DNA of 64,000 nucleotides from Nitrosarchaeum sp. (GTDB lineage: Archaea > Thermoproteota > Nitrososphaeria > Nitrososphaerales > Nitrosopumilaceae): positions 1,856,001 through 1,920,000 of the forward strand of contig OZ245020.1 of the NCBI GenBank assembly GCA_965223865.1. The letters run 5' to 3'. Both the position numbers and the translations under genes were made by a program. Below the pieces are notes generated by a model that was not told where the DNA came from, searched no databases, and saw only the letters and a list, made by a program, of their open reading frames with translations. Shown in pieces: positions 3,850-38,408 of this stretch (its first letter is position 1; the number at the start of each line of letters is the position of its first letter).

Positions 3850-4525
3850 CTACAATTATAGAAACATTACAATTTGAACATTTATCCAATGGAACTATCA
3901 TTATGTCTTTATCATTTACTGTAACAAAGTCTCTGCTAATTTCTTTACCGTCTGATAATATGCTGATCTGATTTTGCAGTAAGTCAACATCATAGATTTT
4001 CTCTAGTGGAGTAATTTTTAGTCTGTTGTTTGTTACTTCAATCTTTATGGGATTACTTTTCTCGTTTTGCCTCATCGATTTACCTTGGTTAATTTTTGCA
4101 AACAAACTTGTAATGAGATCAGTTATTGGCTTGCTGAAAAATTTCTTTTGAGGTTTTGCAATTACTATTTTTTTAGATGCTTGCCTCTTTGTTTGTTTCT
4201 TATTGACTGCAGTCTTTTTCATTTTCAGGTTTTCAGGCTTGTCTCTGCTTAGTGATGTTCCTCTTATCAGAAACATTAGATTTGCTTTTATCATCTGGTC
4301 AGGAGTCATTATCTTGGTGTTGACTAGCCCCAGTCCCAAAAACATGGTCAAAATCACGCCTGGAGCAATGAAATCCTTGGTAACAAAGTAGGCAACCATT
4401 GCGGCAAGCATTCCTGCAAGTATCATACCAAGCTGTCTAAACGACACTTTTCCAATTGGAAGTGGTAGCGCCTTCTCATGCATTATAGAATCATTTTCAA
4501 ATATTACTAGTTCAACATGTCTCAA
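3821..4525 (-). CDS. PrgI/VirB3-like membrane protein, copy A
   Basis: N-terminal GKVSFRQL followed by two TM helices, typical of PrgI-like proteins; paralog of 32250-33041. Confidence 0.7.
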   Translation of the reverse strand: MRHVELVIFENDSIMHEKALPLPIGKVSFRQLGMILAGMLAAMVAYFVTKDFIAPGVILTMFLGLGLVNTKIMTPDQMIKANLMFLIRGTSLSRDKPENLKMKKTAVNKKQTKRQASKKIVIAKPQKKFFSKPITDLITSLFAKINQGKSMRQNEKSNPIKIEVTNNRLKITPLEKIYDVDLLQNQISILSDGKEISRDFVTVNDKDIMIVPLDKCSNCNVSIIVDEGIEEQLC

Positions 4526-5961
4526 TATTCTGTATCCTCCAAAGAATTGTTGGGATTAGCTTTGTTAATTTTGATTGTAACCTTGTTTTTGAAATGAATT
4601 GTCTTGCTAAATGACTTTCTTTGTTGTTTTTGCAAATAATGATTTTTTATCACGTGTATTAATGAAATCTTTTTGAACTTGATGTATGTGAATAATCCAG
4701 CAACAATTATCAAGATAAAAATTCCAAATAGTGAGAAATTAAAAATCTCATTTTCCTTACTCGTGGTAGCATCAACGAGATTTGTAACAGTATCTAATTT
4801 ATCTACACCATCATCAAAATTATTATCAATAATGCCTTCTATCATGTCATCATTTGACATGACAGTGTCTTGTGCATTGACATTGTTATCTGTTACAGAC
4901 CCTTTTTGATTAGAAATATCATCTGTTGTATCCTTGAAATTAGAAATTACATCATTAGTATTATCACTAAGGTTTGAGTCAGCTGTAAAATCACTGACTG
5001 CCAAATCAGTGTCTAGAAGATTGTTTTCGTCAGCATTATTCTCAACAATATCTACTGTTGACATGGCGTTGTCTTTTTCTATATTGTCTGGTTCATCTTG
5101 TGATACGTATGAAAGCAATTCAAATTCAAACACTTTGAATGGTTTTGTTACATGAACTGGACTATACTTTACACCAGATAATGGAAAAGGAATGTCGGGA
5201 GTTACCAAATATGATGTTGTAACATCATCATGCGTATTGGTAATGTCTACATCATATCCTATCTTGTAAACATTAGAAAATATTTTTTCAGTAGATGTTA
5301 TTGAATTATCATTATAATCTACCATATTCAGTGTTGCAGAGTATTCCAAACTGTCATCAAATACTTTCATGTGGGGGTTTGAATCAAAATCCAAGGATTC
5401 AGTAACTGTTCCCCATATCGAGCCTGCTTTGAGCAGTTTAGGCGCCTCTGCATACTTGAAAATTGAGAATATTGTGTTCTCTATGGATTGAGCATATTGT
5501 ATGGTGTCTGGATGAATTGCACTAGCTGACTTTACGTCAAAATTCTCAGGGTTTATGTGAAATATTGAACGCTTAATTGAATTGTCTGAGATGTTACTAA
5601 TTGAGACATTTGCCACCCAAATGTGGTTATCAATCTGATCACCAGTATCAGAAGACAGAAAATTGACAAAATCTAATTTTATTACATAGCATAGACTAGA
5701 ATTGTGGTCCAGGTTTTTGGTAAAGTAATGATAATTTTCAGAGGAATAATCAGGAATGTGATGAGGATCACAAATTTTGTATGTGTAAGAATCACCGACA
5801 GACAAATTCTTTCCCAGATGCCACATTCCATCTTGATATAGAACAGCAATCTGTTTGTTATAGTTAATTGAGTACGCTTGTGGAATTATGACATTGTATG
5901 AAATACCAAATATTGTGATAATTACAATAGACAGCGATAGATAAATCCTGAATTTTTTCAC
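4522..5961 (-). CDS. Membrane-anchored surface protein with acidic stalk, copy A
   Basis: Signal peptide, conserved N-domain (GKNLSVGDSYTYKICDP), D/N/T-rich linker, C-terminal TM; paralog of 30666-32060. Confidence 0.85.
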   Translation of the reverse strand: MKKFRIYLSLSIVIITIFGISYNVIIPQAYSINYNKQIAVLYQDGMWHLGKNLSVGDSYTYKICDPHHIPDYSSENYHYFTKNLDHNSSLCYVIKLDFVNFLSSDTGDQIDNHIWVANVSISNISDNSIKRSIFHINPENFDVKSASAIHPDTIQYAQSIENTIFSIFKYAEAPKLLKAGSIWGTVTESLDFDSNPHMKVFDDSLEYSATLNMVDYNDNSITSTEKIFSNVYKIGYDVDITNTHDDVTTSYLVTPDIPFPLSGVKYSPVHVTKPFKVFEFELLSYVSQDEPDNIEKDNAMSTVDIVENNADENNLLDTDLAVSDFTADSNLSDNTNDVISNFKDTTDDISNQKGSVTDNNVNAQDTVMSNDDMIEGIIDNNFDDGVDKLDTVTNLVDATTSKENEIFNFSLFGIFILIIVAGLFTYIKFKKISLIHVIKNHYLQKQQRKSFSKTIHFKNKVTIKINKANPNNSLEDTEY

Positions 5962-6014
5962 AAAAAAATTATCTGGATTTCTTTAAAAGTAAAAAAAAGA
6001 AAAAGTGGAAATTA

Positions 6015-6143
6015 TTAGTTAAGAATTGAGGTCTCTATCTTTTGTATTGGATGATTGAATATGTCGTGATGGGTGGCAGCTATCTGTTCTTTGTTAAAAG
6101 TAAGGGCACATCTGTAGCATCTCCAAGAGGTAGCAGTCTGCAT
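6015..6143 (-). CDS. 42-aa C2H2-type zinc-finger microprotein, copy A
   Basis: MQTATSWRCYRCALTFNKEQIAATHHDIFNHPIQKIETSILN; near-identical paralog at 28303-28431. Confidence 0.85.
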   Translation of the reverse strand: MQTATSWRCYRCALTFNKEQIAATHHDIFNHPIQKIETSILN

Positions 6144-6236: not shown

Positions 6237-6311
6237 TTATTCGTTATCGTCAATGAAAATCCAAGATAATCCTTGTACTTCTTCCCAGGATGACGAGTTT
6301 GATTGGTTCAT
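6237..6311 (-). CDS. 24-aa micropeptide, copy A
   Basis: MNQSNSSSWEEVQGLSWIFIDDNE; paralog at 30559-30630; shared upstream TGAATCTTTTATACAAA promoter. Confidence 0.7.
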   Translation of the reverse strand: MNQSNSSSWEEVQGLSWIFIDDNE

Positions 6312-6635
6312 GGTACCTTTTTGCAAAATTTGTATAAAAGATTCAAGAATGATTCATTCATATCGATAAACAGCATTATCTAAATAGTATTGTCACGTTA
6401 TTAGATGTACCAAGATGTGGAGCTGTCATCAAAATTCCTGATCGGTTTTGGTCTTAAGCTCCAGTAATCATTGTAAAATCGAGTCATTTTTCGTTTTTTA
6501 ATTCTGTTTGGCAATCATCATCGAACCTCTACAGTTACTTTTGCTGAAATTTTCACGAATACAGAATGTAATTCACACGCCTAAAAATACCACTATTGAA
6601 TCAATCCTATGTTTGGTGCGATGTGTCACCAGTCA

Positions 6636-6864: not shown

Positions 6865-9450
6865 TTATTGATCCCGATATTTTCTATAAACAATAAATCC
6901 AATCAATAAAATCAGCGAAAGCCCCAACAAGACTGCAATCCATTGCGCAAAAACTCCTTGAAACAACAGGCTTTCAGCTTTTCTTTGTGGTGGACTAATC
7001 TTAACATCATCAAGTTCAGGCAATGTAGTTTTTGCAATGCCACCCCAAATGTTCTCGGCAGAAATGTTCAACTCATCATCAAGATAATCTGAAGGCACTG
7101 GCATGAAGCATATGTTATCATCATCATTTGATTTTGTTTTAAAACATTCTGAAAGAGTCGAACCAGAAAATATTTTATCGTTGATCTTTAATGATTCAAT
7201 TTCTCCAAAATTAGGATCAAAAGCATACAGTAACACTCTAGGATTTGCAGGATCCCTTTTCATGTCAAGTGCGTTATCATCATCCATGTTTACCAGATAT
7301 TCATATTTAACAGAAAAGTCATGCCAAGTATTATCAAAGACATGAGTAATCTCGTTGGTTCCATCACTTGCGGTAATTGAAACATAAAATGGCGACAGTG
7401 CATGCAAACCAGTTGTTAATGGTATTGAAAGTCTTGCATTTTCAGAGTCTAACAAATATTTTTCAGAAATGTCAATGACATCGTTATCTGAGAATGATTG
7501 CGAAGATATTACATCATACTGCGTAAATAATGACGCAATCCTTCTTGTTTTATCCAAAGTTATAGAACCAAATCCAGAAACGTGATTCTCATCCATGGGA
7601 TAAATGTCATCATCATTGACCACAACAATTGGATTACCATCAATATCAAGACCAGTAATTATCTGTGAGAACCCGTCATCGCCAGTATCGTAGAATATCT
7701 TGTCATACATGTACTGGTCCAGATGTTCCGTGCCTGAAATGTCAAACCTAGGCGCAACATTCAAGTATAATTCAACAGAATTGTCCTGGTTGCCATCTGA
7801 ATCAACTGCCTTGACTCTTAGAGTATTGTGAAAAAATGCTTCAGGATACATGTATTCGGTAAATGCCAAGTGTGTCACGTCATGTCCTGCAAAGTGACTG
7901 GACTGTAATGTATCAAACACCGTAGCATTTTCAAATCTTGGAATCTTTTTTGCATCATCATATACAACATCTAAAATTCCAGGATAGTCAAAGAAAATTT
8001 TACCGTATCCAGACTTTACAAAGTTTGAAGTTGTGTGTCGTTCAACTTGAAAAGGTATTTCATCAGGAAACTCGGTTGCAATTAGCTTGTCAGAAATCTC
8101 ATCGCTCTTTTTGATGTTAGTCTGATTGATTATGATTCCAACATCGTGAGCTTCATCCCATGTTAGATCAATGTCATCAGAATACTCAGTGCTAGCTACC
8201 GTACCATCCAGTAGTTCAAACTTCCACGGGTCAGCACCCCATGTAGAATAAAAATAATCATTTGCCTTGCTTCGTCTGTCTTCATGAATTCCAATCACAT
8301 CATCAGGGTTTGCATCTGTGCTTTCAGAGCCAAAATAATGCAATGCGATTCCCATCCTGTCATCAAAGGCAAGTCTTTGGTCGTCTCGCAAAACTGGATA
8401 AACATATGCATCATAGATTGGCTCATACTCTACAACTAGAGCCGAAGTCGAGTTGTCATTCTGATCAATCTGCGGTACGATGTTGAACAGTTTTGTGTTG
8501 TATGATATTGTGTGGTTTCCAATTAGATCAAGTGATGTTGAATTATACACCGTGTTTCCACCACCATAATCAAATGTTCCAGCCCATGGCTCAAATCCAG
8601 AAATGATCATTGTGTTAGTGCAGCTTGCAAGCTCGCACTGAAACTCGTCTTCCAAGGTCAAAGGGGAATAGTCTTTTGTTATCTCAACAAAGATTGTTCC
8701 AACCCTGTCGTTTTTCCACTTGTAGATTGGGTTGTGAATGACATTGATTGCATCCCAGACATAGTATGACTTGTCAAGATTTCTTGAAATGTATCCATCG
8801 TCTTCTGTGAATTCAAATGAATCTTTTTCCATGGCGACCTCAAGGTATGGCAAAATCACAGATGGAAAGTAACTGGCCAAAGCACTAACAGTGGGCCATC
8901 CGCAATGCCATGTACTGCCTGACTTGTGACACACATACTGCTCAGCTGATGCCCTCTTAGAGATTGACACAGGTTCAGATTCCCCAATTACAGGAGATAT
9001 GATGGCAGTTCCAGCATCTGATGCAGAACCATATGTGCCACCTGTTGGATCATCCTCAGAATCATGACCATGAATAACACAATCAGGGCCGTGCGAGACT
9101 CCAATCAGATTTGCAGTGGATTGCAATGGACAAGGTTGAAAATGTCTGCATCCTTCAGTCCATGTGTTAATTTCATACACAAACGCATCTCCAGGATAAA
9201 ACGTCTTGTCAGGATTGTTTCTGTGGTAGATACCATGGTGTGCAGATTTGATTGTTATTTGCACATGGACAAAGCATCGCTCCTTGTACAACGTGTCAGT
9301 GGATACAGCATCACTCCCAGACACAGAATGAAACTCGGCAATTACTATTTCATCAGCATATGCGATGAATGTTTTGCTGTCATTATCATTATACATAATG
9401 GTCACATTCCCAAAGATTAGCAAAATAATCAGAAATACTCGTGGTTCCAC
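6865..9450 (-). CDS. Large membrane-anchored surface protein with Cys-rich N-domain, copy A
   Basis: Signal peptide and C-terminal TM with basic tail; aligns end to end with 24890-27447; GTG start inferred from the paralog. Confidence 0.88.
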   Translation of the reverse strand: MEPRVFLIILLIFGNVTIMYNDNDSKTFIAYADEIVIAEFHSVSGSDAVSTDTLYKERCFVHVQITIKSAHHGIYHRNNPDKTFYPGDAFVYEINTWTEGCRHFQPCPLQSTANLIGVSHGPDCVIHGHDSEDDPTGGTYGSASDAGTAIISPVIGESEPVSISKRASAEQYVCHKSGSTWHCGWPTVSALASYFPSVILPYLEVAMEKDSFEFTEDDGYISRNLDKSYYVWDAINVIHNPIYKWKNDRVGTIFVEITKDYSPLTLEDEFQCELASCTNTMIISGFEPWAGTFDYGGGNTVYNSTSLDLIGNHTISYNTKLFNIVPQIDQNDNSTSALVVEYEPIYDAYVYPVLRDDQRLAFDDRMGIALHYFGSESTDANPDDVIGIHEDRRSKANDYFYSTWGADPWKFELLDGTVASTEYSDDIDLTWDEAHDVGIIINQTNIKKSDEISDKLIATEFPDEIPFQVERHTTSNFVKSGYGKIFFDYPGILDVVYDDAKKIPRFENATVFDTLQSSHFAGHDVTHLAFTEYMYPEAFFHNTLRVKAVDSDGNQDNSVELYLNVAPRFDISGTEHLDQYMYDKIFYDTGDDGFSQIITGLDIDGNPIVVVNDDDIYPMDENHVSGFGSITLDKTRRIASLFTQYDVISSQSFSDNDVIDISEKYLLDSENARLSIPLTTGLHALSPFYVSITASDGTNEITHVFDNTWHDFSVKYEYLVNMDDDNALDMKRDPANPRVLLYAFDPNFGEIESLKINDKIFSGSTLSECFKTKSNDDDNICFMPVPSDYLDDELNISAENIWGGIAKTTLPELDDVKISPPQRKAESLLFQGVFAQWIAVLLGLSLILLIGFIVYRKYRDQ

Positions 9451-9606
9451 AAAATTTAACACATTATTTTTTAAAAAGCAAAAACAATCGGCATCACATT
9501 GACTGCAATGAAATGTTGAATGGATGTTTGCTTTTTGTTTTATTCATTTAACATTTTCTATGCATTGTGGAATCAGATCTTATAAATCTCAAAATCAATC
9601 AATGTC

Positions 9607-10285: not shown

Positions 10286-10633
10286 TTACAGTAACTTTAA
10301 TGCTTCATCAATTATTTTTGTATGATCAGCTTTGACATCAGTCGTTAGGTAGATCAGGTGTTCTGTTCCCATAGGAATTGTAATACGCTTAACCTTGGCA
10401 TATTCTGCCAAGACGTATTTGCCTTCCCCAATCTTGTCTGAAAGCTCATTACGTGCATTCCAAGAATTTATTGCTTGTTGAAGTGATTTTTTGCTTTCTT
10501 CTGGAGTCAGAACGTTTGTTACACCTTCACTATGTCCAGTGTGTTCAATTTTTCCATCTTTGTTTGCAATTGTAGCAAATCGAATCTGAGGATCAATGGC
10601 CAAGATTTTGTCATACAATGCCTTGTAGTCCAT
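10286..10633 (-). CDS. Thaumarchaeal roadblock/profilin-like small protein (DUF6659-like)
   Basis: ILAIDPQIRFATI...IGEGKYVLAEYAKVKRITIP pattern; paralog at 17105-17470. Confidence 0.75.
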   Translation of the reverse strand: MDYKALYDKILAIDPQIRFATIANKDGKIEHTGHSEGVTNVLTPEESKKSLQQAINSWNARNELSDKIGEGKYVLAEYAKVKRITIPMGTEHLIYLTTDVKADHTKIIDEALKLL

Positions 10634-17104: not shown

Positions 17105-17470
17105 CTAGTTATCAGAAATATTATTGATCAAATCCAGTATTTCATTAATGATTTTCTGGTGATCATTTTTCATTTCGGTGTGAACCATCAAAAGATAGTT
17201 GTCATTTATGGGAAACGACATTCTTTTCATCTTTTCGTATTCACCCATGGAATATCTGTTCTTTCCGATTCTGTATTCGATGTTTTTTCTTGTATCCCAT
17301 CTTTGTACGGCATAAAAGTGGACCATCTTCAATTCGTCTTCTGTAAGTATAGGAGTCATTCCTTTTCTGTATCCTCCACATATCTTCTCGCCATTTTTGG
17401 CCATAATTATGGCATACTGGATTGACTCGTCTATGTTCATTATTTTTTCATAAAATTTCTCAAAGTCCAT
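17105..17470 (-). CDS. DUF6659-like roadblock/profilin-fold protein
   Basis: Paralog of 10286-10633. Confidence 0.75.
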   Translation of the reverse strand: MDFEKFYEKIMNIDESIQYAIIMAKNGEKICGGYRKGMTPILTEDELKMVHFYAVQRWDTRKNIEYRIGKNRYSMGEYEKMKRMSFPINDNYLLMVHTEMKNDHQKIINEILDLINNISDN

Positions 17471-22997: not shown

Positions 22998-24848
22998 TTG
23001 GTACCTACTCCAATGACTTTAACAAAGAAGACAAAATCGATGTACTTTACTACAACGATACTATCTGTACTGACTATAGCACTGTTCACAATTAGTCCAA
23101 TTAATAATGCAGAGGCAGGCGGAGGAGATGATCGCATAGAGTTTGATGTTACTGATACCCCAGGACACTGGTTTGACACTGGCAATGATATTGCAGGAAC
23201 TCGTTCCCTTGCAGTGGCAAGTCCTGACGTAGAGGTAAAGTTTAGAGGAGAGTCAAACACGGTTCACACATACACCAGCTTGCTGTATCCTACAGGTGCT
23301 GCAAACATGCCTTTTGAAACCGAAGCCCAAAAGGGAAGTGAAGAGGTGGATTTGGAGACTCCTGGCCTTTACGTGTTTACATGCCAGATTCATCCATACA
23401 TGTTTGGCGCTGTAATAGTTGATGATCCTTCAACTGCAGGACTTGATCTTGGAGAGGAGATAACTACAATCAATGGAATTACGGTTCCTACAAGCAGTGA
23501 TCTTGCAACAAGACTGTTGAGGACATTCTTTATTGCGACAAACCCTGACAACTGGCAGGACTATACATCACCTGCACCATGGCATGTGACATACCCAGAT
23601 GTGGATGTCCGAATAACTGGCGGAGCAGTGGTTAATCTGCCTGCGGTATTGGATGCAAGGTATGGAAATGACATTGCCCTAGAAGGCTTGTTTAATCCTT
23701 CAACTCCTGGAGTTGGTGAGGTATGGGTAAATACTCAGTTTGAGTTAACATCAGGAAAAGACAAACCTGGTACTGCTACTGTAATTAATGCACAGACATG
23801 GGAGCCAGAAAGAAAGGTATCGCTGCCACAGATTGAGATGAACAATCCTCACAACATGTGGACTGACAGAGACCAGAACCTGATATACCAAACACAGTGG
23901 TTTGATTCCAAGCTTACGGTGTTTGACAGGGAAACTGGAAAGCTTGTCAAAAACATCAGCGTTGGAGAGTCTCCTGCTCATGTCATGACCAGGGTTGACA
24001 CTGACCATATTCACGTTACACTAAACGGTGAGGAGGACAGCAGGTCTGTAGTTGAGCTAAAACCTTTGGCAAAAGGAGTTGAAAGAGAGATTGACATCGG
24101 ACGAGGACATCCGCATGCTCATTGGATGAGCCATGACGGACAAACAATGGTAACACCCAATGTGCTTGACTCTGATTCAACAATCTATGACTTTGATTCA
24201 GACTCTGTTACTGCAATAACTGATGCAGGTTCTCATCCCATTGCAACTGGTATGATGCCTGATTCAAGCAAATACTATGTAGCAAACCTACTTGACAGCA
24301 CCATGACAGTAATTGAGACCTCTTCTGGAGATGTACTTGGTACAGTCAACCTGATTGCAGACTATGACCCAATCAGCGGTACAATAACCGGCCCGGTGGG
24401 TGCATTGCCAATACAGACCCCAGTGAGCCCTGATGGCAACTATATGGTTACTGCAAATACGTTAACTGGAACCATCACCATATTAGACACTGACACAGAT
24501 CAGTTAGTTGCAATGCTTCCATGTGATCCTGGATGCCACGGAGTCCAGTTTGGAGCAAAGGAAGGTGGAGGATACTATGCATATGTCTCAAGCAAGTTCT
24601 CAAATGAGTTAATTGTGGTAGATGCAGATCCTGACAACAACGGTGATGCATCAGATGCACAGATTGCGGGTCGTGTAGCGTTGGTCTCATTGCCAAGTAC
24701 TGCCATTGATGATACAATAATAGGAAGTGATGGCATGGGAGGACAAGGAGTGTTAACGATTCCATTGCCCTATAATGGCTGGGTTCAAAACCTTCCAGAT
24801 TCTTGGAAGAGCCAACTAACTGCAGAACAGCAAAACCCAATCCAATAA
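22998..24848 (+). CDS. Secreted cupredoxin (type-1 Cu) + His-rich beta-propeller protein
   Basis: Signal peptide; NTVHT...PGLYVFTCQIHPYM type-1 Cu ligands; YVTN-like blades (VSPDG, MPDSSKYYVANL). Confidence 0.85.
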   Translation: MVPTPMTLTKKTKSMYFTTTILSVLTIALFTISPINNAEAGGGDDRIEFDVTDTPGHWFDTGNDIAGTRSLAVASPDVEVKFRGESNTVHTYTSLLYPTGAANMPFETEAQKGSEEVDLETPGLYVFTCQIHPYMFGAVIVDDPSTAGLDLGEEITTINGITVPTSSDLATRLLRTFFIATNPDNWQDYTSPAPWHVTYPDVDVRITGGAVVNLPAVLDARYGNDIALEGLFNPSTPGVGEVWVNTQFELTSGKDKPGTATVINAQTWEPERKVSLPQIEMNNPHNMWTDRDQNLIYQTQWFDSKLTVFDRETGKLVKNISVGESPAHVMTRVDTDHIHVTLNGEEDSRSVVELKPLAKGVEREIDIGRGHPHAHWMSHDGQTMVTPNVLDSDSTIYDFDSDSVTAITDAGSHPIATGMMPDSSKYYVANLLDSTMTVIETSSGDVLGTVNLIADYDPISGTITGPVGALPIQTPVSPDGNYMVTANTLTGTITILDTDTDQLVAMLPCDPGCHGVQFGAKEGGGYYAYVSSKFSNELIVVDADPDNNGDASDAQIAGRVALVSLPSTAIDDTIIGSDGMGGQGVLTIPLPYNGWVQNLPDSWKSQLTAEQQNPIQ

Positions 24849-24889
24849 CTTTTTTCTTTTTATTTTTTAAGAAATGCTTATTCTATTTT

Positions 24890-27447
24890 GTGGAATCCAG
24901 AATATTTCTAGCTACATTATTGATATTTGGCAATGTGACCATATTGTACAATAGTACAGCGTATGCTGATGAAATAATTTTGTTTGAAACTCTTCGCAGA
25001 TCAGGAAGTGATGAAGTATCAACTGACAACCTGTACAAAGAAAGATGCTGGGTAAATGTACAAATTACAATAAAATCATCACATCACAACATCTACCACA
25101 GAAACAATCCAGACAAGACATTTTATCCTGCTGATGCCTTTGATTACGAAATTAATACTTGGATTGAAGGATGCCGTCACTTCCAACCCTGTCCTTTACA
25201 ATCTACTACCTTGATTGATGTTCCAAACGGGCCTGCATGTGAGATACATGGACATGATTCTGAAGATGACACAGTTGGTGGGACATATGGTGCTGCATCA
25301 AACTCTGGCACTGCAGTAATTCCAGCTGATTTTGACGATTTAGATTCAGCATCAATATCAAAGAGAGCTTCAGCTGAACAATACGTCTGCAACAAGGCAG
25401 GAACAAAGTGGGTTTGTGGATGGCCTACAAGGACTGCATCTGCAAGCTATTCTCCAAATGTAATACAGCCAAACATGGAAGTCACAATGGAGACCGTCGG
25501 ATACGAGTTCACAGAAGAAGATGGTCACATATCTAGAAATCTTGATGAATCCTATTACGTTTGGGATGCAATCAATGTTGTTCACAGTCCATTATACAAG
25601 TGGAAAAATGATAGAGTTGGAACCTTGTTTGTAGAGATTGAAAAGAGTCATGATCCTCTAGTCTTAGAAGATGAATTCTTTTGTGAATCTGCAAGCTGCA
25701 TCAACACAATGGAGATTCCAGGATTCAAACCATGGACTTGGGAGTTTGATTATGGCGATGGTAACACAGTGTACAATGCAACATCCCTTGCTGACATTGG
25801 AGAGCATGAAATTGAATATACCACAACGCTTTACAACATTGTACCGCAGATTGATCAGAACATCAACTCAACAAATGTTCTAGTTGTGGAATACGAGCCA
25901 ATCTATGACGCATATGTGTATCCTGTATTGTCCGATGACCAAAGACTAGCCATTCATGATAGGATGGGTGTTGCACTACACTATTTTGGCTCTGAGAGTA
26001 CAGATGCAAATCCTGATGATGAAATAGGTATTCATGAGGACAGACGTTCTAAAATTAATGATTATTTCTATTCAACTTGGGGCGAGGACCCTTGGAAATA
26101 CGAACTGCTAGATGGCACTGTAGCTGATACAGATTACTCTGATAGTATGGATTTGATATGGGATGAGGCACATGATGTTGGAATTGTAACTAACGAATTA
26201 CCTGTAAAAATATCTGAAGATATTACAGATAAATTGATTCCAACTGAATTTCCAAACGTAGTACCTTTTGAAGTTGTACAGCATGAGACTGCAAACTTTC
26301 TCAAAGCAGGTTACGGCAAAATCAAATTTGAGTATCCAGGTCTATATGATGTTCTAGTGGATCCGGTACTGAACATTCCAAAGTTTGAGAATGCCACCGT
26401 ATATGATACATTGCAATCATCATACTTTGCAGGACATGAAGTTACTCATCTGACAAACACAGAATACATGTATCCAGAATCATTTTTTCACAATACCTTG
26501 AGTGTAACAGCATTTGATGCAGACACAAATCAAGATGATTCAGTTGAAATCAAATTGGAACTCATACCTAGATTAGATATTCCAGGTACACAATATATTG
26601 ACGGATATATGCATGACAAGATTCTGTTTGATACCCAAGATGACGGATTATCCCAAATAATAACCGGTCTAGACATTGACAAAAATTCTATTGCCATAGT
26701 CAATGGACATGATATCTACGTTTTAGATGATCTTGAAAATTCTGGTTTTGGTTCTGTATCAATAGACAAAACTAGACGAATCCTGTCATCATTTACACAA
26801 TATGATACGATAGTAGATCAAACGTTTGCAAACGATGATGTGACTGATATTTCAGACAAGTATCTATTGGATACTGAAGATGCAATATTGCCTATTCCGT
26901 TGACAACTGGTCTGGATGCACTGTCACCATTTACCATATCCATCACTGCAAATAATGGAATCGATGAAATTACAAACACGTTTGATCAGACATGGTATGA
27001 TTTTTCAATTGACTACTCTTATGAGATAAACATGAATGATGATAACATATTAGACATCAAAAGAGACGAGGCAAATCCCAGAGTTTTGCTGTATCAGTAT
27101 GATGATAACTTTGGAGAAATAGAGTCATTGAAGATAAATGACGTTACAATTAGTGATGAAGATTTACTAGAATGCTTCAATATAAAATCTCTAAACACTT
27201 GTGTAGTTTCAGTACCACAAAAACATCAATTAGATGAGCTAAACATTACTGCAACTAACATTTGGAATGGGAAAGCATCTGCAACATTACCTGAAATTGA
27301 TGAAAATATTTTGAATCCGAAACCACCTGATGCAGAACATCTGATATTTGATGGAATTTTAGAATCATGGATAGTCATACTTTGGTGTTTTTGCTGATGA
27401 TACTTACAGTATTTTGGATTGTCAAAAAATACCAATCAGACAAGTAA
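24890..27447 (+). CDS. Large surface protein, copy B (C-terminal anchor frameshifted near 27381)
   Basis: Paralog of 6865-9450; ORF stops at 27397 but the TM tail VFLLMILTVFWIVKKYQSDK continues in another frame to 27447. Confidence 0.85.
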
Positions 27448-28302: not shown

Positions 28303-28431
28303 ATGCAGACTGCTACAACCTGGAAATGCTACAGATGTAACCTAATATTTAACAAAGAACAGATAGCTGCTACACATCATGATATATTCAAACACCCTGT
28401 ACAAAAGATAGAGCTCTCAATTCTAAACTAA
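28303..28431 (+). CDS. 42-aa C2H2-type zinc-finger microprotein, copy B
   Basis: MQTATTWKCYRCNLIFNKEQIAATHHDIFKHPVQKIELSILN. Confidence 0.85.
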   Translation: MQTATTWKCYRCNLIFNKEQIAATHHDIFKHPVQKIELSILN

Positions 28432-28699: not shown

Positions 28700-30317
28700 T
28701 TGAAACTTCACTCATTTGTCATTACGACGTTTATCTTTTTTTCATTGGGTTCTATGTCACTGATATTCACAAATATGTCATTTGCAGAAAGTGAGAAAAA
28801 AAGCATGATTGTGACGCCTCTTGGCACCTACGAATCAGGCATATACGACAAAGCCGGTGCAGAAATAGTGACACATGATCATACAACTCAACGTCTGTTT
28901 GTCACAAATGATCATTCTCAAACTATAGATGTACTTGATATTAGTAATCCAAAAAACCCCATACTGGAATTCTCCATAGATGTTACACCATATGGTAATT
29001 TGGTCAACAGCATTGATGTGCATAACCAAATCATTGCAGCTGCAATAGAACCTGAATCACACGACCATCTTGGCAAAGTAGTTTTTTTTTGATATACACG
29101 GAAATTACTTGAATGGTGTTCAAGTAGGTTTTCTTCCAGATATGTTGACCTTCACTCCTGTAGGTGACAAGATACTGGTTGCAAATGAGGGAGAACCCAA
29201 ATCTTATTGTAATGATAGCCAAAATGATCCTGAAGGCTCAATAAGCATAATTGACATATCAAACAACAAAATACAAAATCCTATCGTTACTGCTATAGGT
29301 TTTGATCAGTTTAATGGACAAGAAGAAAAACTGCAAGAAAAAGGAATCAGAATATTTGGTCCAGGTGCCACATCTGCACAAGATTTAGAACCAGAATACA
29401 TTACGATTTTACCTGATGGCAAAACAGCAGCAATAAGCCTGCAAGAAAATAATGCAGTAGCAATCCTGGATATTGATTCAGCACAAATAACAGAACTACT
29501 GCCTATGGGATACGTAGATCATAGCATCTTAAAAAACAAGATTGATGCAAGCGATGAGGATGGTAAAATCAACATTTCAAACTGGCCAGTCAAGGGAATG
29601 AGACAGCCTGACGGGATTGACTCTTTTGTTGTAAATAATGACATATTTTTGATCACTGCAAATGAGGGAGATCCTCGAAATTATGGTTGTATAGTCAATT
29701 ATGAGGATACAGAAGAGGAAAAGGTATCAGATATTTTATTGGACTCTGATTCATTTCCAGACAAACATATACTGCAAAAAGATGAAAATCTGGGACGTCT
29801 GAAGGTAAGCTTGCTAGAAGGCGATACTGACAACGATGGCGATTACGATGAACTCTTCACATTTGGCAGCAGGTCATTTTCCATATGGACTGTTGATGGC
29901 CAGCTAGGGTATGATAGTGGAGATGACTTTGAACAGATTATTGCATCCAAGTTTCCAGACAACTTTAATGCAAATCACTACTACAACGAATTTGACAAAC
30001 GAAGTAACAACAGGGGCCCTGAACCTGAAGGAGTGATTGTTGAAAGAATAGGTGCAAAACAGTTTGCATTTATTGGTCTTGAGAGAATGGGTGGAATGAT
30101 GATATATGACGTAACTAATCCATATAATCCAGAATTTGTTGATTACATAAACAACAGAAACTTTGCAGTAGATCCTTCAAAAGAATTGTCTGGTGCAGGG
30201 GACCTTGGACCAGAAGAACTCTTGTTTATACCCAAATATCACAGTGCTATAGACAATCCTCTACTAGTAGTTGCAAATGAGGTAAGTGGAACTATAACCA
30301 TTTACAAAATTGAATGA
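28700..30317 (+). pseudogene. Choice-of-anchor I / alkaline-phosphatase-like beta-propeller, frameshifted at T9
   Basis: AEIV, LPDMLTFTP, VANEGEP, DLEPEYI, QPDGI, ANEGD, FGSRSFSI, GPEPEG; split at 29082-29090. Confidence 0.9.
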
Positions 30318-30558
30318 ATCAATCATTCAATTTTCTTTTATACTATTTCACATATTGTAGTTTGGAATTCACACGGTGGAGTCATTCAGCCGTTTAACCG
30401 ACCATATACCTACTAGGGTTGGGCAATATTGGCCCAATTCTAAATTATTGTTATTCTATGATCAAAGAATATGGTTTTATTTTTTCATACTTTTCACTGA
30501 TGATTTGTATGAACAAATTATTTTTGAATCTTTTATACAAACTTTGTAAAGAGATGTC

Positions 30559-30630
30559 ATGAATCAATCTAATCTAACTTGGGAAAAAGTGCAAGGATTA
30601 TTGTGGATATTTGTTGAAGATAACGAATAA
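30559..30630 (+). CDS. 23-aa micropeptide, copy B
   Basis: MNQSNLTWEKVQGLLWIFVEDNE. Confidence 0.7.
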   Translation: MNQSNLTWEKVQGLLWIFVEDNE

Positions 30631-30665
30631 TCTCGTTACTTTTAAAGAAATTCAGATAGTCTTTT

Positions 30666-32060
30666 GTGAAAAAGATAAAGATCTACCTTCCTTTACTTGT
30701 AATTATAGTAACAACAATTGGACTGACATTTGATATTATAATTCCAAATGTTTATTCGTTGACTCCGCCATCATACAATGAACAGATTTCTGCATTATAT
30801 CAGAACAATATGTGGCAACTAGGCAAAAACCTGTCTATTGGCAATTCATACACCTACAAAATTTGTGATCCTTCTGCAATACTGAATTATTCAGCTGAGA
30901 GTTACCATTACTTTACAAAAGATCTGGAGCACAACTCTAGTCTGTGTTATATCATAAAACTGGACTTTGTCAACCTACTAAATTCAGATGAAAACCAGAT
31001 TAATAGTGACATTTGGGTGGTTCAAGCCTCAATAAGTGATGTTTTCGGTACAGATAATCCCATAAGACGCTCAGTTTTCCATGTTGATTCTGATACTTTT
31101 GAGGTCAGATCAGCTGATACTATTCATCCAGATACTATAAGATACACTCAATCCTTGGAAAACACGATATTTTCAATTGTAAAATACACTACATCTGAGC
31201 CCAAATTTCTGCAACAAGGAATCAAGTGGGGTGAAGTCACTGAATATTTGGATAAAATGCAAATCAATCCATACATGGAAGTGTTGCAAGATGACTTAGA
31301 ATTTTCTACAATTCAAAATGCTGTGGATTATTCTCAAAATAAACTAATCAAAACAGAAAAGACGTTTGATGTATACAAGGTAGGATATGAAATTGACATC
31401 ATTGATGCTGATCTACGAGAAGAAAATACAAACAATGTAATTAACTATTATCTCATTCACTCACAATTTCCATTTCCATTATCAGGAACCTTATACAGCC
31501 CAGCTCATGTAGTAGAGCCATTCAAAGAATATGAGTTTGAATTGATTTCGTTTATTTCATTTAATGTAATTGAAGAAGATAATTCAATTGAAGAAACTTA
31601 TAATCTAATTGATGATGTCATAGATGAGTCTATTGATAACAATATTATCGATCCAGTGATTGAAGATATTGTAATTGATAACACAGTAGAAGACAATATT
31701 GTTGATGATGTCATTGATGATGATCCTGTGCTGATTGACGATACAACAGATGAAGTTGTTCCAGAAAATGTAGATGCCGATGACATAGTTGATGAGATAA
31801 TAGACGATGACGATATTATAGTTGAAAATATTGTTGAATCTGCGATTGATGATAGTAAAAACAACAATCCATCCGTTACTAATGTGATTGGTCTTGTATT
31901 GTTATTGGCGGTTACAATTGGTGGATTTGTATATTACAAGAAATTCAAAGACAAGAATTTAAAATCAACTAAGAATAATAATTTCAAATCTGATTCAATA
32001 ATCAAAACAGTTCACTTCGATGATAGGATTACAATCAATATCAAGAAAAAACAACAATAA
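30666..32060 (+). CDS. Membrane-anchored surface protein with acidic stalk, copy B
   Basis: Paralog of 4522-5961. Confidence 0.88.
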   Translation: MKKIKIYLPLLVIIVTTIGLTFDIIIPNVYSLTPPSYNEQISALYQNNMWQLGKNLSIGNSYTYKICDPSAILNYSAESYHYFTKDLEHNSSLCYIIKLDFVNLLNSDENQINSDIWVVQASISDVFGTDNPIRRSVFHVDSDTFEVRSADTIHPDTIRYTQSLENTIFSIVKYTTSEPKFLQQGIKWGEVTEYLDKMQINPYMEVLQDDLEFSTIQNAVDYSQNKLIKTEKTFDVYKVGYEIDIIDADLREENTNNVINYYLIHSQFPFPLSGTLYSPAHVVEPFKEYEFELISFISFNVIEEDNSIEETYNLIDDVIDESIDNNIIDPVIEDIVIDNTVEDNIVDDVIDDDPVLIDDTTDEVVPENVDADDIVDEIIDDDDIIVENIVESAIDDSKNNNPSVTNVIGLVLLLAVTIGGFVYYKKFKDKNLKSTKNNNFKSDSIIKTVHFDDRITINIKKKQQ

Positions 32061-36467: not shown

Positions 36468-38408
36468 GTGAAATCGATTTCAATCCTTTCAAAGGAGAAA
36501 AATAAACAAAAGAATAATCAAAATACAAATTCAGTCAAGAAAACTGACAATAACGATCCAAATCAATTCAAGTACAGCTATAGTATAATCCCAACCAACT
36601 TTGTCAATTTATCAGAAGAAAACCAGACACAAAAGATGGGACAGTTCTTTGATATTCTAAGAGTCATAGAAGACAGAATCAAAATTACAATGTCTCGAAG
36701 GATGGTTCCCATAACTGTAGAAGGCCAGACAGTAGACATGCCAGTTATGCAAATTCATCTAGAATCACATCAGCCACTAAGTGATGTTTTAGATCAAATT
36801 AAGGTAGAATACATTTCAGGTGACAGGCCGCCAAAAAGTCAGATTGTAAGGGAAAATCTCAGTAATATGGAAATTATTCAAACTGTTCATGAAAATAATG
36901 ATAATGAATTTGTTGAAAATAATTACAACAATTCAATTTTTGCCCAATGTTTTTCGCTCTATAATCTTCCTGCCACTTTACCATACGCATGGATCACCAA
37001 CATCTTTGGATTGTGTTCACAAGTTCAGATTATGATAAATCCTGTTGCAAAGGATGAGGCCATTACACGAATGGTCAGATTCAAAAATATCATCTATGAG
37101 GATTCCAAAAAAGACAGATCTACAGCTGAGCTTTACAAAAGGGCTGATGATACTGAAAATTCTCTGAGACGAGATGATACTGGACTGTATGAATGTGTAA
37201 TCAACTGTATGGTCACTGCACAAAACAAAAAACAGTTACATGATAATTCTAAATTATTTAAAAAACAAGTAAAAAGATATGGTGGCTCATTTGGTGTGGT
37301 TTCAGCAAAACAGGCTGCAATGTTAATTGAGGGATATGGCAAGAAACTAACGTTAGATAGAGGAAGTTGTGTAATTTTGTATTCATTTGTATCAGCTGAC
37401 ATGCTGGAAATTCCAAACGGAATACCATTGGGAATCAACATGATATCAAAGGGACCAGTTATTTTTGATATTGCAAAAAGAACAAACTATAACATTGCAG
37501 TAATTGGAAAAAGCGGTTCAGGAAAATCATTTACTGTAAAGATTTTACTAAACAGATTACACCAGAAATTTCCATACTCTCACATCTTTGTGATTGATCC
37601 TATGGGAGAATATGGTGCAATCTCCCAGTTTTTTGGAATGCAAAATTTGAACATCACCAAAAATGATGAACATTTGGGATTGGATCCGTTTGTTTTACTG
37701 GAACCGCAGGATGCAGCTGACATTCTGGCAGAGATGACTAATGCGCCAGACACCACAAAGATACAGTTTCAAAAGTATTGTGACAAGGCAAAAAACATGA
37801 AGGAATTTTATGACAAATTAACACCAAGACACAGAAAATATCTGGATCATCTGATGGATGGTCCTCTGTCTAGAATAATCCTAGGAGAACCAAAACTGAA
37901 TGACTCCAAGAAAATTATCATTTCAATGGATGGTGCAACTGGAAATGATTCAGAATCAATGGTACTCGTGTTGTTGTTAAATAAGATTTTCAAGATTTGT
38001 AATCAATTACCAACTAAAACAAGAAAGATTTTGGTGATTGATGAGGTATGGATGTTATTCAAGATGCCAGGAGCTGCAAAGTATGTCAACATGATAGTGA
38101 GAATGGGCAGGAAACTAAACATCAACTTTATCTTTATTTCACAAAGAATCGAGGACATTTCAAAAGAGGATGACACTGGAATTGGAAAAATCATAGACAA
38201 CATGGAGACCAAAATCATTTTGGGATTGGAAGAACAGGCAGCTGAAACTGCAAGAAAAGTTTTGAATTTGTCAGATCAGGAAACCAGCAAACTAAAGTCA
38301 TTTAATCGTGGTCATGCATTGTTTTTGACTAAAAATCATCGAATTCATGCAAAGTTTGAACCTACTTCACAAGAAAAAGAGATGTTTGATACGACACCTT
38401 TGGAATAA
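36468..38408 (+). CDS. VirB4-like conjugative-transfer ATPase
   Basis: NYNIAVIGKSGSGKS (Walker A), VIDPMGEY, ILVIDEVW (Walker B), RMGRK, ISQ, GHALF. Confidence 0.9.
   Translation: MKSISILSKEKNKQKNNQNTNSVKKTDNNDPNQFKYSYSIIPTNFVNLSEENQTQKMGQFFDILRVIEDRIKITMSRRMVPITVEGQTVDMPVMQIHLESHQPLSDVLDQIKVEYISGDRPPKSQIVRENLSNMEIIQTVHENNDNEFVENNYNNSIFAQCFSLYNLPATLPYAWITNIFGLCSQVQIMINPVAKDEAITRMVRFKNIIYEDSKKDRSTAELYKRADDTENSLRRDDTGLYECVINCMVTAQNKKQLHDNSKLFKKQVKRYGGSFGVVSAKQAAMLIEGYGKKLTLDRGSCVILYSFVSADMLEIPNGIPLGINMISKGPVIFDIAKRTNYNIAVIGKSGSGKSFTVKILLNRLHQKFPYSHIFVIDPMGEYGAISQFFGMQNLNITKNDEHLGLDPFVLLEPQDAADILAEMTNAPDTTKIQFQKYCDKAKNMKEFYDKLTPRHRKYLDHLMDGPLSRIILGEPKLNDSKKIIISMDGATGNDSESMVLVLLLNKIFKICNQLPTKTRKILVIDEVWMLFKMPGAAKYVNMIVRMGRKLNINFIFISQRIEDISKEDDTGIGKIIDNMETKIILGLEEQAAETARKVLNLSDQETSKLKSFNRGHALFLTKNHRIHAKFEPTSQEKEMFDTTPLE

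Follow-up and report, generated by a model that had tools for sequence, protein, structure and literature searches.

A probable micropeptide gene family with a shared upstream box in Nitrosopumilaceae, and its copies on an apparent conjugative-type element

The 64,000-nucleotide (nt) stretch of a Nitrosarchaeum genome analysed here (the window; C1:1856001-1920000 of a 2.01 Mb genome in 4 contigs) carries two copies of an open reading frame (ORF) of 23 or 24 codons, one in each of two related gene modules. Judged from sequence, these ORFs are very probably members of a real family of coding genes that share a promoter architecture. We propose, with a probability of roughly one half, that the encoded micropeptide is made from a leaderless mRNA under a shared operator and acts in trans as a docking motif, and that the copies on the element form a captured sub-lineage. 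Archaea are already known to have small proteins and leaderless micro-genes. Few archaea of oceans and soils are as abundant as the Nitrosopumilaceae, for which, to our knowledge, genetic tools are lacking and gene regulation is almost unexplored.

Results

The two window copies and their paralogues

Copy 1 (6237..6311, minus strand; 24 amino acids (aa) and TAA, MNQSNSSSWEEVQGLSWIFIDDNE) and copy 2 (30559..30630, plus strand; 23 aa and TAA, MNQSNLTWEKVQGLLWIFVEDNE) matched the family hidden Markov model (HMM) with E values of 1.4e-15 and 2.9e-16, respectively. Their coordinates, starts, stops and single one-codon indel agreed with the first-pass annotation of the window, which had described a conserved ORF in both modules. 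Of the 23 aligned codons 12 differ, half of them synonymously; the remaining six changes alter the residue (S>L, S>T, E>K, S>L, I>V, D>E). By codon position, nine nucleotide differences fall at the third, four at the first and two at the second. When the 141-nt unit was compared with the whole genome by blastn, it recovered the second copy at E 1.4e-23 and a third, outside the window, at E 2.7e-26, a likeness that far exceeds chance. Between modules the micropeptides are 74-79% identical, compared to 67% for the flanking 865-aa protein and 44% for the 479-aa protein. Both copies combine the short ORF, core and acidic tail that define the family, and their TATA and upstream boxes are placed alike.

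Six short copies were found in the genome by blastn and a six-frame HMM scan, two of them in the window. The third copy is of the window subtype and lies at C1:745318-745392 in a third, partly disrupted copy of the module. Three diverged copies (C1:923518-923592, MENRNNQNQSWEEVRGLSWIFFEE; C1:1982338-1982421, MANHCNQNESNQTWEEVRGLSWIFYED; C1:1274628-1274696, MNDNTESTWEDVIGLSWLISEE) sit amid ordinary chromosomal genes. The HMM scan also returned three longer, weaker relatives that end in ...GLSWIFAKEDD... or ...GLSWILAKEDD....

Family range and motif

In genome sets that sample larger groups and whose related genomes are not independent, the paralogue profile matched 62 of 201 Nitrosopumilaceae genomes, frequently more than once in a genome (11 of 27 genera; 47 of the 144 genomes of high quality), and a class-wide sample gave 66 of 145 Nitrosopumilaceae genomes. 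The class-wide profile search did not find the family in 105 genomes of 13 other families. Three genomes flagged as unpublished (G077, G092, G093) count in the tallies only. Matching records were titled Nitrosopumilus, Nitrosarchaeum or Nitrosopumilaceae. The extracted ORF set holds 74 non-redundant members from other genomes, or 80 with the six described above, and two further matches had no ATG, GTG or TTG start. Seventy of the 80 members are 21-29 aa long.

A variable, polar N-terminus rich in N, Q and S is followed by the motif [ST]-W-E-E-[VI]-x-G-L-S-W-[IVL]-[FI], within which W-E-x-x-x-G-L-S-W is invariant. The motif is followed by one variable residue and then by a tail of two to six residues, most of them acidic, and the net charge is acidic. 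An R or K occurs in the core of some subtypes only. Between core and stop lie about 3 to 7 residues; one subfamily has about 15-20 after the motif. The peptides contain no signal-peptide-like or membrane-spanning stretch, the longest hydrophobic run being 4 residues, which makes a secreted form of the signalling or exclusion peptide suggested in the first-pass annotation unlikely. A conjugation or quorum peptide that is secreted was likewise rejected on the lack of a hydrophobic signal segment and of any transporter or protease recurring beside the genes, and a type I toxin or small membrane protein on the hydrophobic run of ≤4 residues and the net acidic charge.

Several known short motifs were compared with the core and set aside. 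The PCNA-interacting protein (PIP) box has the consensus Qxx[ILM]xx[FWY][FWY]; in VQGLSWIF the spacings are two residues, not three, and R or I replaces the Q in most members. HbYX and LC3-interacting region (LIR) motifs, compared by their consensus sequences, were rejected because their spacing or C-terminal position is not kept across members. The best non-family profile match in the genome, ...NISWNEVIGLEDAK..., was not significant (E 2.1) and lies in a 397-codon open frame at C1:1127312 (+). By its motifs this frame is probably an AAA ATPase, and the match resembles the N-terminal W-[DE]-[DE]-[VI]-x-G-L segment that directly precedes the ATPase domain in classic AAA proteins of the Vps4/CdvC type. 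SW.EVIGL is common to the sixth copy and this frame, but the sequence past GL is unlike the micropeptide and the AAA segment is part of a folded domain, so we treat this as a resemblance only.

No Pfam or NCBIfam model matched the micropeptides, and a Pfam scan of three peptides at E up to 10 returned 0 families. In a 5.8-billion-protein collection there were 177 matches at E ≤ 0.01, named solely "hypothetical protein", with no Pfam domain among the best 120 of the 177 matches listed. An exhaustive profile search of 1.84 billion representatives yielded 90 clusters at E ≤ 0.001, all of ≤109 aa. The single pattern match among 2.9 million viral contigs was not a family member. We found no description of such a family in the literature searched; small ORFs of integrative-conjugative elements could be listed in the supplements of PMC6563490.

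Two longer subfamilies were seen beside the short form. One, of about 50-58 aa (loci L035, L036, L052, L053, L054 and L099, and in this genome C1:777737 (-), 1003506 (+) and 244356 (-)), has an N-terminal extension (...PEPxTxLVExxPVK...), the same GLSWIF-acidic ending and a different conserved upstream word, GGCATGCCACAA. The other, of 44-52 aa (proteins P0006, P0015, P0024, P0103 and others), starts with MV[QE] and has an invariant ...ACA end, and in some of its members, not in others, CxxC...CxxC flanks the motif. AlphaFold modelled a Cys-containing 49-aa form with an uninformative mean predicted local distance difference test (pLDDT) score of 58, and an ESM Atlas look-up of this form gave unnamed clusters only.

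Evidence for coding

The pattern of conservation across homologues was that of a coding sequence. No stop occurred in any match listed from the 201-genome HMM search, and in the class-wide search the matches listed were all open except two, of which one contains TGA and the other TAG. The 74 non-redundant homologues keep both start and stop. Among 31 unique core DNAs, the invariant Gly uses all four of its codons, Ser is encoded by both TCN and AGY, Leu by TTR and CTN, and Arg by AGR and CGN, and column entropy at codon positions 1/2/3 is 0.74/0.28/1.06. For 74 unique cores, the ratio of nonsynonymous to synonymous differences (pN/pS) was 0.30 in frame (pS 0.71), compared to 0.74 and 1.67 in the shifted frames, in which stops are present. 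RNAalifold predicted 0 base pairs for 16 diverse members, and an Rfam scan of the window returned two tRNAs and nothing else. The check for frame-breaking changes in homologues, which the first-pass annotation had named as refuting, came out on the side of a peptide, and codon usage together with open frames in nearly all homologues agrees with the initial view of a real peptide below annotation thresholds. We infer from these data that the ORF is translated in vivo.

Promoter and upstream box

Both window copies are preceded by TGAATCTTTTATACAAA, in which the TTTATA hexamer starts 27 nt before the A of ATG (6333..6338, minus, for copy 1; 30532..30537, plus, for copy 2), as expected from the TATA spacing initially reported as common to both. 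In 62 of the 70 short members the first base of a TATA-like hexamer lies between -26 and -29. Immediately ahead of it ends a 16-nt box of the shape TGAA-N7-TTCA with an AT-rich centre, which starts at -49 in both window copies. In copy 1 the box is TGAATGAATCATTCTT (6345..6360, minus); in copy 2 the two-part upstream element comprises ACTGATGATTTGT followed by the box TGAACAAATTATTTTT (30496..30525, plus). With ≤4 mismatches to TGAACAAATCATTCAT allowed, the box was present in 42 of 70 short members versus 1.3% of shuffled upstream regions, and in 38 of these 42 it starts at -49/-50. The second conserved piece (GATCATT; ACTGATGATTTGT in this genome) lies ~17 nt further upstream, and the two-part consensus is cAc.GATcATT.aTaTGAACAAAT.aTTC.

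The position of the 16-nt box, where an activator or repressor would act, suggests a candidate operator, and its recurrence at -49/-50 in most copies points to a common regulator. Presumably its shape recalls Lrp-type operators. The usual archaeal distance from TATA box to transcription start would put the mRNA start at or near the ATG here, so that a TATA box about 27 nt ahead of ATG would make the micropeptide mRNAs leaderless or near-leaderless. The fixed TATA spacing among homologues, along with separability from the 479-aa gene described below, supports the earlier proposal of an independent unit with its own promoter.

A box of this kind (TGAAnnAATCATTC) followed by a TATA box also occurs at a few places without a micropeptide ORF, among them window 30315-30343 (+), C1:647988, C1:1459082 (+) and C1:27516 (-). 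The sequences downstream of the first two are alike, as are those downstream of the last two. These sites may be further regulon members, perhaps small RNAs or other tiny ORFs.

Fusion to RAM domains and overlap with a TrmB gene

Among the database matches longer than the query range, 20 of 21 were ~100-aa proteins in which an N/D-rich linker joins a stand-alone RAM domain (PF01037) to a C-terminal tail, SKPSWEE[IV]RGLSWIFYE, that is the micropeptide motif and is closest to the fifth copy in this genome. The full fusion is encoded at seven metagenome loci; all such fusions come from protein databases and metagenome contigs. AlphaFold gave the fusion a confident RAM fold and a disordered linker (mean pLDDT 74.8). 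The micropeptide shares this tail with the stand-alone RAM proteins but differs from them in having no RAM domain of its own (~73 positions, beta-alpha-beta-beta-alpha-beta; 0 Pfam families at E up to 10) and in being a gene with its own promoter box. Ahead of the fusion genes, the promoter box of the free genes was not recognised in an unscored inspection by eye. RAM copy number showed no visible relation to the presence of the peptide.

In a further observation on the tail, WEIFIILD is still readable after the stop codon in 5 of 7 tailless close RAM relatives (L143-L147, ending ...DDHPKI), and these codons are a decayed remnant of the tail.

One genus has seven loci at which the 3' end of the peptide ORF and the start (ATG) of a TrmB-family regulator gene (PF01978) overlap by 11 nt, and the TrmB gene is followed by genes for a RAM protein and a Cys-rich 61-67-aa protein. 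When complex prediction was applied to the TrmB regulator and the RAM protein together with a 31-aa form of the peptide read from locus L029, it gave no answer (score 0.00), which speaks neither for nor against an interaction.

Chromosomal contexts

Most family members lie in housekeeping neighbourhoods with no module gene within 1.5 kb. Besides the module-borne subtype, four others occupy ordinary chromosomal settings in which the neighbours vary between subtypes. The next co-directional gene differs among subtypes and is often absent or convergent, as for the fourth copy here and for loci with ribose-5-phosphate-isomerase-like genes on the opposite strand. Small Cys-rich proteins recur beside the micropeptide gene, namely a C2H2 ORF in the window and a CxC/CxxC protein of 62-66 aa that follows the sixth copy as well as that copy's orthologue.

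DUF6659 (PF20364) was encoded within 1.5 kb of the micropeptide at 15 loci of other genomes, in ~7 arrangements as grouped by eye. This genome has 30 DUF6659 matches (22 over the cut-off), among them window 10286-10633 (-) and 17135-17446 (-), and none lies within 1.5 kb of any of the six copies. The neighbour link is a weak lead. Stand-alone RAM domains are similarly numerous in this genome (27 matches), and both DUF6659 and RAM are small-protein expansions.

The module in the window

The window subtype, MNQSN...VQGLSWIFV[DE][DE]NE (the Q subtype), has a homologue of the 865-aa protein on one side and one of the 479-aa protein on the other. This holds for each of the three modules here and for loci L009, L097, L011/L044 and L042 from three further genomes, of which one belongs to a different genus. 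Upstream of copy 1 lies the gene for the 865-aa protein (6865..9462, minus), homologues of which flank the peptide elsewhere, with an 864-aa homologue in module 2 (24803..27397, plus). Downstream of copy 1 lies the gene for the 479-aa N-terminally anchored protein (4522..5961, minus), which has no Pfam family and carries a TTTAAA box (5982-5987, minus) 26 nt before its GTG. In module 2 the corresponding 464-aa gene (30666..32060, plus) begins 35 nt past the stop of copy 2, its own TTTAAA box (30641-30646, plus) being 25 nt before the GTG.

What lies between the peptide and the 479-aa gene varies: a C2H2 ORF after copy 1, a 264-266-aa gene in L097 and L042, and a 268-aa gene in L009. These varied inserted genes and the TTTAAA boxes of the 479/464-aa genes indicate that the micropeptide gene is a separable unit. 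The C2H2 ORF is a 42-aa zinc-finger mini-ORF of the pattern C-x2-C-x12-H-x5-H without a Pfam match. It is conserved between both modules and is probably another unannotated small gene, and a homologue adjoins the peptide in L009. In module 1 it lies between copy 1 and the 479-aa gene (6015..6143, minus), and in module 2 ~2.1 kb upstream of copy 2 (28303..28431, plus), so that its order relative to the micropeptide is swapped, as the first-pass annotation had noted.

We call the module conjugative-type on account of its VirB4/TraG-type ATPase. The 646-aa form is encoded at 36468..38408 (plus; PF19044 2.8e-17, PF01935 1.1e-16, PF12846 1.1e-15), and in module 1 a 186-aa N-terminal piece (1405-1965, minus) adjoins a tyrosine integrase gene (363-1484) and tRNA-Glu (140-215). 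A PrgI-like membrane protein in the module matched weakly, below the Pfam cut-off. With its ATPase, membrane component and integrase at a tRNA gene, the module appears to be an integrated conjugative-type element, in line with the Thaumarchaeota integrative-conjugative elements with such genes described in PMC6563490.

Two observations concern the state of the modules. In the third module (C1:741600-754400) the 464-aa gene is split into 209-aa and 163-aa pieces that lie ~5 kb from each other, and after it comes another 865-aa homologue in inverted orientation; this module is decaying or rearranged. In the window, a 130-aa ORF with a signal-like N-terminus (28700-29092) lies just upstream of a 402-aa ORF (29109-30317; both plus) that matches the "choice-of-anchor I" domain profile (PF22494) only from position 100 onward. 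The two are probably one broken gene, split in two.

Discussion

A trans-acting docking peptide

We propose that the micropeptide acts in trans, as a free docking motif that would bind a conserved cellular protein. Action in trans rather than in cis is favoured by the lack of a constant downstream gene and by the separability of the peptide from the 479-aa gene. Elsewhere the same motif is tethered by a flexible N/D-rich linker to a RAM (Lrp/AsnC ligand-binding) domain, and the RAM-tail fusion, together with the TrmB/RAM operon of one genus, makes a network of small transcription-regulator modules the most likely arena. Each gene is self-contained: a two-part box lies ahead of the TATA box at -27, and transcription would begin at the ATG or beside it. 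The shared box would place all copies under one regulator. The window copies belong to a sub-lineage carried on an integrated conjugative-type element; since they keep the host-type promoter box, the element copy would be switched by the host circuit and feed into it. We put the probability of this reading at about 50%; translation in vivo, the leaderless start, the action in trans and the nature of both partner and regulator are its inferred parts.

A more specific version can be stated tentatively. The peptides might be encoded ligands or adaptor tails for the expanded RAM and TrmB/Lrp-type modules, the free motif competing with or substituting for the RAM tail, and the element copy under the host box would then plug into the circuit or jam it. 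We regard this version as doubtful.

Several observations weigh against a docking peptide of the small-regulator network. RAM genes are present in 201 of 201 Nitrosopumilaceae genomes, including those of genera in which the peptide was scarcely or not found (1/17, 0/11 and 0/16), so the peptide is not an obligate companion of RAM proteins. No RAM gene adjoins any of the six copies in this genome, and the full RAM-tail fusion was not found in the 201 family genomes or in the species-representative collection. The TrmB/RAM operon is limited to one genus, and its parts are dispersed in this genome. In the AlphaFold model of the fusion, the tail forms a helix (93-102) of modest confidence, with pLDDT of about 61. 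As for the self-contained gene, runs of T downstream of the stop show no clear excess (T5+ in 17 of 70 members versus 19% of shuffles).

Alternative explanations

The motif could instead act in cis, as a leader or arrest peptide whose nascent chain stalls or paces the ribosome and thereby controls the next gene on the same leaderless transcript. A length of 21-29 aa with a conserved C-terminal part and a variable N-terminus fits arrest peptides of the TnaC type, the 11-nt overlap of stop and ATG at seven loci is classic translational coupling, and the next gene lies 35-49 nt past the stop in copies 2 and 3. Moreover, about 25-31 residues separate the folded domain of the RAM fusions from the end of the motif, which is roughly the length of the ribosomal tunnel. 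However, for many copies no gene in the same direction lies close by or the neighbour is convergent, the downstream genes vary by subtype with tight overlap only at the seven loci of one genus, the core-to-stop distance (about 3 to 7 residues) reaches about 15-20 in one subfamily, and the 479/464-aa genes have a TATA-like box of their own; we therefore consider control in cis unlikely. We judge it quite improbable, too, that the peptide is a part of the transfer module, for signalling, exclusion or assembly, with the chromosomal copies as remnants or domesticated forms. The constant place of the Q subtype between the 865-aa and 479-aa genes, in three modules here and in three other genomes, agrees with such a role, as do the VirB4/TraG-type ATPase, the weak PrgI-like match, the integrase beside tRNA-Glu and the thaumarchaeal integrative-conjugative elements with such genes described in PMC6563490. 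Yet the peptide is polar and acidic without a signal-like or membrane segment, most members are in housekeeping neighbourhoods away from any module gene, the module copies carry the promoter box of the chromosomal ones, and the sole match in viral contigs fell outside the family. This explanation fits the module subtype only. The first-pass annotation had tentatively placed the peptide in the transfer system; this stands as far as the constancy of the Q subtype in the module across genomes, and is not supported as to specificity, since four subtypes are chromosomal and 62 of 201 genomes carry the family. For the module-borne subtype alone, a part in assembly may apply.

Two further explanations carry very little weight with us. 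A precursor of a modified or exported peptide, similar to ribosomally synthesized and post-translationally modified peptides, with the conserved part as recognition sequence, would account for the variable N-terminus rich in N, S and T ahead of one conserved region and for the invariant ...ACA end of one subfamily. It is very unlikely: no modifying-enzyme or transporter gene adjoins the ORF recurrently, and the motif, being fused to a RAM domain of the cytoplasm, more likely works inside the cell. A non-coding DNA or RNA element with an incidental open frame is the least credible of all, even though the upstream DNA box is itself conserved and the ORF is below ordinary gene-finder length, given that conserved residues use different codon families, pN/pS is lowest in this frame, there is neither a consensus RNA structure nor an Rfam match, and start and stop are kept in 74 non-redundant homologues, with two further matches lacking a start.

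Likeness to known small peptides

The docking peptide that we favour has partial counterparts among known systems. sP26 of Methanosarcina mazei, reportedly a 23-aa protein that binds glutamine synthetase, is similar in size, in being encoded by a stand-alone small gene and in the presumed binding of a larger protein. It has no sequence relation to the micropeptide, which unlike sP26 is multi-copy, has a shared promoter box, can be carried on a mobile element and also occurs as a fusion to a sensor domain. TnaC, a 24-aa leader/arrest peptide, resembles the micropeptide in length, in a conserved C-terminal half with an invariant Trp and in being first on its transcript, and coupling to the next gene occurs in one genus; leader peptides of this sort differ from the micropeptide, which has no constant downstream gene and a variable distance from motif to stop. 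Enterococcal pheromone-inhibitor precursors are about 22 aa long, hydrophobic, signal-peptide-like, exported and processed. They share with the micropeptide a tiny ORF with its own promoter in a transfer module, whereas the micropeptide is polar and acidic with a hydrophobic run of ≤4, and most of its relatives are chromosomal. What sets this family apart from described ones is that its promoter box is fixed, that a genome has several copies, that a mobile element carries some of them and that the motif is reused as a RAM tail.

Significance

The family is invisible to standard annotation and provides concrete small-protein targets for existing proteomic and transcriptomic data. The box at -49 is a candidate regulon marker, and through the RAM tail the family can be tested for a link with stand-alone RAM domains, whose expansion is puzzling. 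In the window, a mobile element also bears a paralogue of a host micro-gene along with a control region of the host type. If the more specific version outlined above is true, the micropeptides would constitute a peptide-based layer of transcription control in ammonia-oxidising archaea.

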